Assembly (NCBI RefSeq): GCF_024223415.1
Contig: NZ_CP100507.1
Reading direction: 5' to 3' (one strand)
Source of the DNA: Escherichia coli
GTDB taxonomy: Bacteria; Pseudomonadota; Gammaproteobacteria; Enterobacterales; Enterobacteriaceae
Length of the DNA: 4,051 nt
The notes beneath the pieces are model-generated. The model did not search any database. It was not told the origin of the DNA and was given only the letters and a program-made list of their open reading frames with translations. Below, in pieces: positions 1,164-4,051 of the stretch; position 1 is the first letter of the stretch; every line of letters starts with the position of its first letter. The translations under genes and the position numbers were made by a program.

Positions 1164-1176
1164 CTTGCTGTGTAAA

Positions 1177-1201
1177 CGAAAAAACCGCCTTGCAGGGCGG
1201 T
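1177..1201 (-). terminator. RNA I rho-independent terminator (stem 1184-1189/1196-1201, loop ttgcag, T-run on the minus strand over 1177-1183)
   Basis: accgcc / ggcggt 6-bp GC-rich stem flanked by an A-run on plus (U-run in RNA I); equivalent to the pBR322 RNA I terminator hairpin. Confidence 0.6.
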
Positions 1202-1278
1202 TTTTCGAAGGTTCTCAGAGCTACCAACTCTTTGAGCCGAGGTAACTGGCTTGGAGGAGCGCAGTCACCAAAACTTGT
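1178..1278 (-). ncRNA. RNA I antisense copy-number control RNA (about 100 nt)
   Basis: Minus-strand start near 1278 (ACAAGTTTTGG, compare pBR322 ACAGTATTTGG) and end at the hairpin plus T-run at 1177-1201; fully complementary to the 5' end of RNA II as in ColE1. Confidence 0.7.
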
Positions 1279-1932: not shown

Positions 1933-2127
1933 TTATATCCCGGTGCGATTTTCCGCTTCAAAGCGTGTCTGTATGCTGTTCTGAAGTTCTTCCGCGAGTT
2001 CGTGCAGCTTCTCACACATGGCGGCCTGTTCGTCAGCATCAAGTGCGTCCAGTTTTTCGAGCAGCGTCAGGCTCTGGCTTTTTATGAATCCTGCCATGTT
2101 GAGTACGGTTTGCTGCTGCTTGTTCAT
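1933..2127 (-). CDS. rop: Rop/Rom (RNA one modulator) copy-number control protein, 64 aa
   Basis: Translation MNKQQQTVLNMAGFIKSQSLTLLEKLDALDADEQAAMCEKLHELAEELQNSIQTRFEAENRTGI resembles ColE1/pBR322 Rop (MTKQEKTALNMARFIRSQTLTLLEKLNELDADEQADICESLHDHADELYRSCLARFGDDGENL, from memory). ATG at 2127-2125, stop TAA at 1935-1933, GGAG about 11 nt upstream, convergent with RNA II as in ColE1. The C-terminal third is divergent. Confidence 0.9.
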   Translation of the reverse strand: MNKQQQTVLNMAGFIKSQSLTLLEKLDALDADEQAAMCEKLHELAEELQNSIQTRFEAENRTGI

Positions 2128-2174: not shown

Positions 2175-2339
2175 TCGCGTACCACTTTTCGACTGTTTTA
2201 CCGTCGGTATTCTGCTGTCTGACTCTTTGACGGGCATTTCTGTCAGACAACACTGTCACTGCCAAAAAACTGCCGTGCCTTTGTCGGTAATTTGAGCTTG
2301 CTGACAGGACAGGATGTGCAATTGTTATACCGCGCATAC

Positions 2340-2386
2340 ATGCACGCTATTACAATTACCCTGGTCAGGGCTTTGCCCCGACACCC
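2340..2386. other. bom/oriT-like remnant (ColE1 basis-of-mobility-like sequence) immediately upstream of mobC
   Basis: ccctggtcagggctttgccccgacaccc (2359-2386) resembles the pBR322 bom flank gactgggtcatggctgcgccccgacaccc as I recall it; the recalled ColE1 nick sequence (TATACTGG/CTTA) is not found intact. Confidence 0.35.
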
Positions 2387-2410
2387 ATGTCAGATACGGA
2401 GCCATGTTTT

Positions 2411-2734
2411 ATGACAAAACGAAGTGGAAGTAATACGCGCAGGCGGGCTATCAGTCGCCCTGTTCGTCTGACGGCAGAAGAAGACCAGGAAATCAGAAAA
2501 AGGGCTGCTGAATGCGGCAAGACCGTTTCCGGTTTTTTACGGGCGGCAGCTCTCGGTAAGAAAGTTAACTCACTGACTGATGATCGGGTACTGAAAGAAG
2601 TTATGAGACTGGGGGCGTTACAGAAAAAACTCTTTATCGACGGCAAGCGTGTCGGGGACAGGGAGTATGCGGAGGTGCTGATCGCTATTACGGAGTATCA
2701 CCGTGCCCTGTTATCCAGGCTTATGGCAGATTAG
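2411..2734 (+). CDS. mobC: MobC/MbeC-family relaxosome accessory protein (ribbon-helix-helix), 107 aa; alternative start ATG 2387 (115 aa)
   Basis: Translation MTKRSGSNTRRRAISRPVRLTAEEDQEIRKRAAECGKTVSGFLRAAALGKK... has the MobC/RHH signature (basic N-terminus, beta-strand RPVRLT, helices AEEDQEIRKRAAECG and TVSGFLRAAALG). GGAG at 2398-2401 lies 9 nt before the ATG at 2411; the upstream ATG at 2387 has no SD. Stop TAG at 2732-2734. Confidence 0.8.
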   Translation: MTKRSGSNTRRRAISRPVRLTAEEDQEIRKRAAECGKTVSGFLRAAALGKKVNSLTDDRVLKEVMRLGALQKKLFIDGKRVGDREYAEVLIAITEYHRALLSRLMAD

Positions 2735-2810
2735 CTTCCAGGGGAGAAAACTGTCGAAAACAGACGGTATGAACACTGTAAGCTCCCAAAGTGATCACCA
2801 CTCGCTTTCA

Positions 2811-2824
2811 TGCATAGCTATGCA
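2811..2824. promoter_or_regulatory. ARG-box-like 14-bp perfect palindrome within the cer accessory region (candidate ArgR site)
   Basis: tgcatagctatgca is its own reverse complement; position relative to the XerCD core matches the ArgR box of cer. Identity as an ArgR site is inference. Confidence 0.35.
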
Positions 2825-2898
2825 GCGAGCTGAAAACGATCCTGACGCATTTCCCCGGTTTTCTTAGGGTAAAACATCTCTTTTTGCAGTGTCTGTGT

Positions 2899-2923
2899 CA
2901 GAATCGCGCTGAGCGCGATTCTG
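2899..2923. repeat. 11-bp perfect inverted repeat / hairpin (cagaatcgcgc tga gcgcgattctg) abutting the XerC arm
   Basis: Seen directly; no downstream U-tract, so not a classical terminator. May belong to a cer-internal transcript (Rcd-like) or an accessory-factor site. Confidence 0.5.
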
Positions 2924-2958
2924 TGGTGCGTACAATTAAGGGATTATGGTAAATACAA

Positions 2959-3225
2959 TTGGTTAAATTACTATTGGTGAGAAATGAATATTTCAATAAA
3001 AACAATGACTTAAAAACCGTTGCTCGGTTTGACGGTAAAACCTTAAGAGATGCCTTTTCGAGAAAAATAGCGACTTTTGATGGCAAGGTTTTAAGGGATG
3101 CCTCTTTAAAAAAAGTAGCAACCTTTGACGGTCAGAATTTAAGAGATGCTAGTTCAAAAATTATCCTGAGTGCCGATGCTGAGGTTGGGATTGTTGTTAT
3201 GGCCTTTGTAGCTGAGTTGATTTGA
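2959..3225 (+). CDS. Hypothetical small protein with three tandem 16-aa repeats and a hydrophobic C-terminus; non-ATG start (TTG 2959, or TTG 2974 / GTG 2977)
   Basis: Translation ...TVARFDGKTLRDAFSRK IATFDGKVLRDASLKK VATFDGQNLRDASSKI ILSADAEVGIVVMAFVAELI. Differences between repeat copies fall largely on synonymous third positions (Ala gct/gcg/gca; Asp gac/gat; Gly ggt/ggc; Arg aga/agg; Lys aaa/aag; Thr act/acc), a coding-type pattern. No in-frame ATG and no clear SD; in-frame stop at 2950-2952 limits the 5' end. Confidence 0.5.
   Translation: MVKLLLVRNEYFNKNNDLKTVARFDGKTLRDAFSRKIATFDGKVLRDASLKKVATFDGQNLRDASSKIILSADAEVGIVVMAFVAELI
3019..3162 (+). repeat. Tandem direct repeat, 3 x 48 bp (units 3019-3066, 3067-3114, 3115-3162)
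   Basis: Conserved cores tttgacggtaaaaccttaagagatgcc / tttgatggcaaggttttaagggatgcc / tttgacggtcagaatttaagagatgct at exact 48-bp spacing. Confidence 0.85.
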
Positions 3226-3798: not shown

Positions 3799-4051
3799 AT
3801 GAATAAACCCAGGTTTAATGGAACTCCTGTTGCATCTTTGGATTCTTTATCTGCGATGTTAGGCATAGAAAGAAAAAGATTGGACTGGATAGTCAAGTCT
3901 GTATCGATGTCGTACAAGCAGTTTAAGGTTGAAACAGGGAAGAATAAAAAAGAAAGGCAAATTTTTGAACCCAAGAGATCTTTGAAAGGAATTCAAAAAA
4001 AAATAAATAAAGAGATTTTTGAGAAAATTGATTACCCTCATTATTTGCATG
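3799..4051 (+). CDS. Retron-type reverse transcriptase, N-terminal 84 codons (continues past the window end; see 1..887)
   Basis: ATG at 3799, open to the last base of the window. Translation MNKPRFNGTPVASLDSLSAMLGIERKRLDWIVKSVSMSYKQFKVETGKNKKERQIFEPKRSLKGIQKKINKEIFEKIDYPHYLH is colinear with the N-terminal region of retron RTs (RQIFEPKRSLKGIQ resembles the Ec86-type IYQPSRELKALQG segment as I recall it). No Shine-Dalgarno is evident, so the start is the first in-frame ATG after a2. Confidence 0.85.
   Translation, partial: MNKPRFNGTPVASLDSLSAMLGIERKRLDWIVKSVSMSYKQFKVETGKNKKERQIFEPKRSLKGIQKKINKEIFEKIDYPHYLH

Follow-up and report, generated by a model that had tools for sequence, protein, structure and literature searches.

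A probable minimal relaxase-in-trans mobilisation module, an R64-type oriT with its own nikA, on a ColE1-type plasmid of Escherichia coli

MOBP-type origins of transfer (oriTs), as in IncP and IncI plasmids, carry an ATCCTG-type nick region at a fixed short distance from an inverted repeat. In R64, the nick site reportedly lies 8 nt from the repeat named repeat A. The minimal oriT of R64 is found immediately upstream of nikA and contains 17-bp and 8-bp inverted repeats, its core consisting of the nick region and repeat A (PMC3817090, PMC4743918). The 17-bp repeats contribute to the site bound by NikA, and they vary between plasmids whose NikA proteins differ (PMC3817090). R64-like oriTs can work without a nikA on the plasmid, as in pEC156, or fail with R64, as in pKPN2 (PMC4743918).

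The closest described plasmids are those of the NTP16/pCERC7 group. According to PMC9282650, which relays Moran & Hall (2017, Plasmid 89:42), pCERC7, pU302S, NTP16 and their relatives share one and the same NikA, which has 53% identity to that of R64, as well as an oriT that is extremely conserved, and are described as having no NikB; in the same account, NikA of the NTP16 group is expected to bind the inverted repeats and to act with the relaxase of an I-complex plasmid, and R64 is stated to mobilise NTP16. pU302S has only nikA and oriT; IncI1 plasmids mobilised it, whereas IncX1 and IncX4 plasmids did not (PMC8623487). It showed no transfer with IncP tra genes and transfer at ~1e-6 with F tra genes (PMC9282650). 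pCERC7 has been cited as a plasmid with an oriT region acquired from R64 (PMC11389934), and the group is listed elsewhere as 'MOBRNA type 5 ... NTP16 group' (PMC6807383). The arrangement of nikA and oriT without a relaxase is already described in this group and is common, and the module reported here represents no new biology.

We analysed a 4,051-nt stretch of E. coli DNA, hereafter the window. NZ_CP066843.1 (plasmid pCol of E. coli Ec-RL2-1X, 4051 bp, circular) is a rotated copy of these 4051 bases with two mismatches. The window is a whole circular ColE1-type plasmid of 4051 bp, so that anything elsewhere on the same replicon is fully covered. RNAI (1176-1276, minus strand; Rfam, 94.6 bits) marks the ColE1 replicon, while rop (1933-2127, minus strand; a Rop family protein in the RefSeq annotation of the near-identical plasmid) bounds the module on the replication-origin side. 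We conclude that 2303-2734 is very probably a minimal mobilisation module of the NTP16/pCERC7 group, which depends on a relaxase in trans and comprises an R64 (IncI1)-type oriT and the plasmid's own nikA. This reading rests on the homology of oriT and NikA, on the lack of a relaxase, on identity to plasmids that were mobilised in experiments and on the purifying selection acting on nikA.

The initial annotation had described the gene in this module as an intact ribbon-helix-helix (RHH) gene of the MobC family. The open reading frame is indeed intact, of RHH type and ends at 2734, but the family assignment did not hold. The longest reading starts at 2387 (115 aa); in the near-identical plasmid, RefSeq begins the protein (107 aa) at the ATG that corresponds to 2411, and a GGAG lies 9 nt 5' of this ATG. 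The gene thus occupies 2411-2734 on the plus strand, where it is annotated 'mobA'. A Pfam search matched residues 18-83 of the 115-aa reading to the NikA-like family PF21983 (E = 5.4e-18), and the structure of the N-terminal RHH domain of R64 NikA (2BA3) was matched over residues 4-48 (E = 2.4e-5). Among NCBIfam models, the protein scored 112.7 bits with MobA NF041264, a small RHH model with a cutoff of 80, and weakly matched TraJ and MbpA. Using tblastn against PLSDB, we found that NikA of IncI1, IncIgamma/K and related plasmids shares 52.9-55.3% identity with the protein over ~96% of its length. In those loci nikB always lies 3' of nikA, the place taken by cer in the window. The 12-kDa protein of NTP16 (Q03449) is 99% identical to the window NikA, which is RefSeq WP_000166966.1, the same record as in pU302S and other relatives. 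Conversely, Pfam MobC (PF05713) did not match the reading frame at E up to 10, and comparison with a ColE1-like MobC-family protein gave zero BLASTP alignments at E up to 100 and only tblastn matches with E above 1. We rejected the MobC/MbeC label on these two grounds, the missing Pfam MobC match and the missing BLASTP alignment. As judged by homology, the product is a NikA-family RHH relaxosome accessory protein, not MobC/MbeC. A simple scan for a sigma-70 promoter upstream of nikA gave no match.

Alignment of window positions 2230-2420 with the regions 5' of nikA in I-complex plasmids delimited an R64-type oriT core at 2303-2386 on the minus strand, which is the strand predicted to be nicked and transferred. 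In global alignments with the sequence directly 5' of nikA, this core was 84.9% identical in the IncI1 plasmid pESBL-12 and 81.6% identical in the IncIgamma/K plasmid PDM02, and BLAST gave 88% identity to another IncIgamma/K plasmid. Read along the minus strand, its elements are first an 8-bp inverted repeat, GTCGGGGC-AAA-GCCCTGAC (2364-2382; GTCAGGGC-TTT-GCCCCGAC in window orientation), followed by a long imperfect inverted repeat (2318-2359; proximal arm ~2318-2337, distal arm ~2340-2359) and then, 8 nt beyond the long repeat, by the nick region GCACATCCTG/TCC (2307-2319; the slash marks the predicted nick). A repeat search resolved the arms of the long repeat as 2320-2337 and 2340-2357, 18 nt each and 83% complementary. 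Folded as single-stranded DNA, the minus strand forms two hairpins and no others, one from the 8-bp and one from the long repeat (-22.7 kcal/mol; z = -4.3 against shuffles).

These elements are strongly conserved. GGACAGGATGTG is unchanged in all 6 aligned oriTs, which came from small plasmids, two diverged lineages among them, and from the I-complex; the arms of the 8-bp repeat are likewise identical in 6/6, window and I-complex included. CATCCTGTCC (2307-2316, minus strand), separated by 8 nt from the repeat arm, does not vary among I-complex oriTs, and this stretch provides the conserved nick region near an inverted repeat that characterises a MOBP-type oriT. By analogy with the R64 nick site, we presume that the nick falls between 2310 and 2309 on the minus strand. 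We take the nick-proximal arm (~2318-2337) to be the counterpart of R64 repeat A, the NikA binding site; on our by-eye reading against the IncI1 sequence, the two presumably agree at 14 of 17 positions. Taken by homology, 2303-2386 is predicted to be a complete and intact R64-type oriT, with its nic site placed on the same grounds. The initial annotation had found no nick sequence within 2200-2390, yet the nick region at 2307-2319 (minus strand), recognised through homology to I-complex oriTs, lies inside that interval; it was missed because a ColE1-type nick on the plus strand was sought.

A bom-like motif, gccccgacaccc (2375-2386), had also been noted and considered degenerate. The motif is present, with most of it inside the 8-bp inverted repeat, whose hairpin contains gccccgac, and it occurs in ColE1 bom too; what we dismiss is the degeneracy, since the surrounding oriT is a complete one of R64 type. 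Using blastn-short, we found that the likeness to ColE1 bom amounts to one 24-nt hairpin element (22/24 nt at 2363-2386), beyond which the ColE1 bom segment gives only 9-11-nt chance matches in the window. The 221-bp segment that holds bom in ColE1, from rop to ori, is replaced by ~70 bp. We therefore rejected a degenerate ColE1 bom, the hairpin alone being in common while nick region and long repeat follow the R64 pattern; the assignment to MOBP5/HEN bom is wrong. The same data address the idea that the locus is a ColE1-type (MOBP5/HEN) remnant, in which an MbeC-like gene and a degenerate bom await an MbeA-type relaxase in trans. Both the shared gccccgacaccc with its adjacent hairpin and the location, the rop-cer interval being the site of the mobC-mbeA genes in ColE1, would suit such a remnant; against this, the gene has neither a Pfam MobC match nor a BLASTP alignment to the ColE1 MobC-family protein, bom similarity outside the 24-nt hairpin is at chance level, and the nick region and long repeat are of the other type. 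We reject a ColE1 remnant at the level of sequence and regard it as having next to no probability.

The earlier observation that no relaxase follows the stop codon, the sequence running straight into cer, proved correct: the next feature is a cer-type multimer resolution site at 2770-2954 (plus strand). Searching the whole plasmid by tblastn with IncI1 NikB (899 aa) and ColE1-like MbeA returned only noise, with E above 3, and there was no NikB or MbeA pseudogene remnant in any frame of the plasmid. When the plasmid was extended circularly and scanned in six frames with NCBIfam, no relaxase family was detected at E up to 1, which extends the observation to the complete replicon; the scan returned only the retron reverse transcriptase (RT), a retron effector and the MobA/NikA-type protein. 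Only two stop-free stretches exceed 148 codons; at 386 and 294 codons, they lie in the pair of frames occupied by the RT gene.

A plasmid without a relaxase might be a decaying relic, in which the relaxase was lost from an ancestral oriT-nikA-nikB (or mbe) region, leaving non-functional leftovers on a non-mobilisable plasmid, and PLSDB types 71 of 805 plasmids matching the 831-bp segment 2130-2960 as non-mobilisable. Of these 805 plasmids, 329 cover at least 80% of the query, and NikA at least 95% identical to that of the window occurs in 380 PLSDB records, after which the next full-length matches fall to at most 55%. By these similarity searches, the module is common to about 330-380 PLSDB plasmids, including pU302S, pEDL933-2 (pOSAK1-type), p9705, 3.17-kb plasmids of the pMUT1 type and a 3172-bp plasmid of Citrobacter rodentium.

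We compared six of these relatives (pU302S, pEDL933-2, pRHB34, pMTY9754, p9705 and pKC25) with the window. The NikA protein showed 0 amino-acid differences in all six, and the oriT core 0-3 differences in 85 alignment columns (none in pU302S and 1-3 in the others), against up to 32/173 in the rop-oriT spacer; the pre-cer region differed at up to 35/190. The nikA gene itself had up to 11 nucleotide differences, and all 13 distinct substitutions were synonymous. With synonymous changes making up 24.5% of the possible single nikA substitutions, 13/13 has a probability of ~1e-8 if sites are independent, indicating that nikA is maintained under purifying selection and is not decaying. Beyond this family, a 4.5-kb contig of a diverged lineage (NikA 67% identical) likewise arranges rop, oriT and nikA in this order and has no relaxase. 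The conserved core beside a variable spacer, the exclusively synonymous changes in nikA, the lack of any NikB or MbeA pseudogene remnant and the experimental mobilisation of an identical module in pU302S (PMC8623487) all count against a relic, which we consider highly improbable. Because NikA and the oriT core are identical, the pU302S results transfer directly to the window plasmid. The initial annotation had left the choice between lost mobilisation and a relaxase in trans; loss is disfavoured by the hundreds of plasmids that keep the module and by the purely synonymous change in nikA, and the identity of oriT and NikA with those of IncI1-mobilised pU302S favours the relaxase in trans.

On the preferred reading of a module served in trans, NikA, as an RHH protein, would bind repeat A, the arm of the long inverted repeat that lies nearer the nick. 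It would bend the DNA and recruit NikB from a co-resident I-complex conjugative plasmid (IncI1, Igamma, B/O, K or Z). NikB would then nick the minus strand at CATCCTG/TCC, 8 nt from the repeat, an exact position that we infer, and the helper's coupling protein and type IV secretion system would export the plasmid strand. Contact between this NikA and NikB is an assumption, because the relaxase-linked NikA proteins of PLSDB come no closer to that of the window than 53-55% identity. Given that pEC156 works without nikA and that pKPN2 fails with R64, the plasmid's own NikA may not be required.

The helper's NikA and NikB might instead both act on the plasmid oriT, the plasmid's own NikA being dispensable or mainly an RHH repressor (in autoregulation, or in control of rop or copy number). 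Read by eye, the proximal arm departs at 3 of 17 positions from R64 repeat A. Such repeats vary where NikA varies (PMC3817090), and the combination fits a cognate pair of NikA and repeat. Nevertheless, pEC156, with an R64-like oriT and no nikA on its published map, was mobilised by R64drd11 at a relative frequency of 0.24-0.52 (PMC4743918), and the segregational stability of pMUT1 went from 6.5 to 9 days when NikA was absent (PMC10859263). A regulatory role would also be in line with the RefSeq GO term 'regulation of DNA-templated transcription' on NikA and with the location of the oriT between nikA and the divergent rop. Strict conservation of NikA across the family, however, fits transfer specificity at least as well as regulation, and the title of Moran & Hall (2017) credits NikA with mobilisation. 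Overall, we judge it improbable that the plasmid relies on its oriT alone, with a NikA that is dispensable or mainly regulatory.

A different qualification of the module served in trans concerns the identity of the helper. Neither PLSDB (tblastn) nor a collection of 5.8 billion proteins yielded a relaxase-linked NikA closer than ~55%, and NikA intermediates at 64-67% identity were found on small contigs only, again without a relaxase. The natural helper may be an unsampled conjugative lineage rather than IncI1/R64, or NikA may be an adaptor through which a diverged oriT recruits several relaxases, including that of F at low frequency. This reading stays in play because no relaxase-linked NikA above ~55% is present in PLSDB, because the 64-67% intermediates sit on small relaxase-less contigs and because the reported mobilisation is qualitative or of low frequency; we consider it unlikely.

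The significance of the module lies chiefly in annotation, since plasmids like this one often bear a 'MobA' label. In PLSDB, MOB-suite assigns the type 'mobilizable; relaxase MOBF' to NZ_CP066843.1, NC_006815.1 and five further relatives, whose RHH gene goes by the name 'mobA'. The MOBF typing appears to be a database artefact, because the six-frame search shows no relaxase. Together, the 'MobA' label and the MOBF typing hide the absent relaxase and the dependence on an I-complex helper, and they could mislead surveys of plasmid mobility.

Two further repeats in the vicinity were considered and excluded from the module. The 8-bp inverted repeat tgtctgac/gtcagaca that had been flagged upstream of the oriT is present at 2216-2223/2242-2249, with extended arms of 11 nt (2213-2252; 91% complementary), outside the functional module. 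Its left arm is lost through a 12-bp deletion in 4/6 relatives, and p9705 has lost the pairing at three positions, leaving 5/6 relatives with a deleted or broken repeat. By chance, a shuffled window should hold ~2.3 perfect inverted-repeat seeds of 8 bp with loops of 3-40 nt. Given its loss in relatives and its chance-level frequency, we rejected it as a functional element and treated it as incidental. Separately, a second exact copy of CATCCTGTCC occurs at 1916-1925 on the plus strand, opposite to the copy at 2307-2316 (minus strand), inside a GCATCC/GGATGC hairpin just past the rop stop codon, where ColE1 has bom. None of 200 shuffles yielded even one copy of CATCCTGTCC. The 74 nt around this second copy belong to the backbone of ~384 plasmids and are absent from ColE1. 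We considered it as a second nic site and set this idea aside, as it lies on the other strand, has no adjacent NikA-type repeat and sits in the hairpin after rop; it may be a rop terminator hairpin or a coincidence.

On the other side of nikA, window positions 2770-2960 match the cer regions of other Col plasmids at 81-84%, and the 30-bp XerC/XerD core at 2925-2954 is identical to that of the ColE1 plasmid. Homology among family members stops right past this core, with different cargo in each. Two variants of the XerCD core exist within the NikA-oriT backbone: the ColE1-identical one in the window, p9705 and pKC25, and another, with 8-10 differences in 30 columns, in pU302S, pEDL933-2, pRHB34 and pMTY9754. 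The two variants are consistent with cargo exchange through recombination at cer.

In the window, an 88-aa reading frame (2959-3225; hypothetical in RefSeq) starts 5 nt past the cer core; it contains 2.8 copies of a 48-bp (16-aa) repeat (ATFDGKxLRDAS...) and then a hydrophobic tail, and has no NCBIfam match. BLAST matches to 4148-bp relatives begin only at ~3043, inside this frame, the first part of which differs there. It is followed by a retron-type RT (3799-4051 joined to 1-887, spanning the window ends), for which the best NCBIfam matches, to retron St85, TIR and Ec67-type RT models, all stay under the respective cutoff. The next gene (893-1095) encodes a protein with a cold-shock domain, whose 85.2 bits exceed the cutoff of 82 set for the 'retron Se72 family effector' model. 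At 3508-3520/3780-3792, the arms of a perfect inverted repeat (13 nt each), which stops 6 nt short of the RT, resemble the a1/a2 stems of an msr-msd RNA; Rfam gave no family in this region. The retron cargo is found in only 26 PLSDB plasmids. As putative anti-phage cargo, the retron could spread horizontally wherever an IncI-type plasmid is present.

Compared with ColE1, the window has the same RNAI/RNAII, rop and cer backbone, an RHH accessory gene between rop and cer, and the GGGTGTCGGGGC..GCCCTGAC hairpin found in bom. ColE1 differs in having its own MbeA relaxase, a bom placed between rop and ori with another nick region, and an accessory protein of a different family with no detectable sequence similarity to the window NikA. 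pEC156 and pKPN2 are, like the window, ColE1-type plasmids with an R64-like oriT that use a helper relaxase; unlike it, they have no nikA (on the published pEC156 map) and also carry an F-type oriT, of which none was seen in the window on comparison by eye with the F nic sequence. The oriT-nikA-nikB loci of R64 and the I-complex resemble the window in the position of the oriT directly 5' of nikA, the invariant nick region, the same 8-bp repeat arms, a long inverted repeat by the nick region and a NikA-family RHH protein. The window departs from them in having no nikB, a NikA only 53-55% identical and an oriT 82-85% identical, and its long repeat is longer and differs in sequence.

The nearest counterpart is the NTP16 group (NTP16, pCERC7, pU302S, pMUT1, pOSAK1/pEDL933-2 and p9705), with which the window shares the identical NikA WP_000166966.1. 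In that group, too, the order is ori, rop, oriT, nikA and cer, there is no relaxase and variable cargo starts right past the cer core. The window accordingly shows the group NikA, an R64-like oriT 5' of nikA, the absence of a relaxase and a ColE1-type replicon with rop and cer. The window has the ColE1 variant of the cer core in common with p9705 and pKC25, whereas pU302S has the other variant. Cargo alone sets the window apart: other members of the NTP16 group carry resistance genes, toxin-antitoxin genes or other segments, and the window carries a retron and the repeat-containing 88-aa reading frame.
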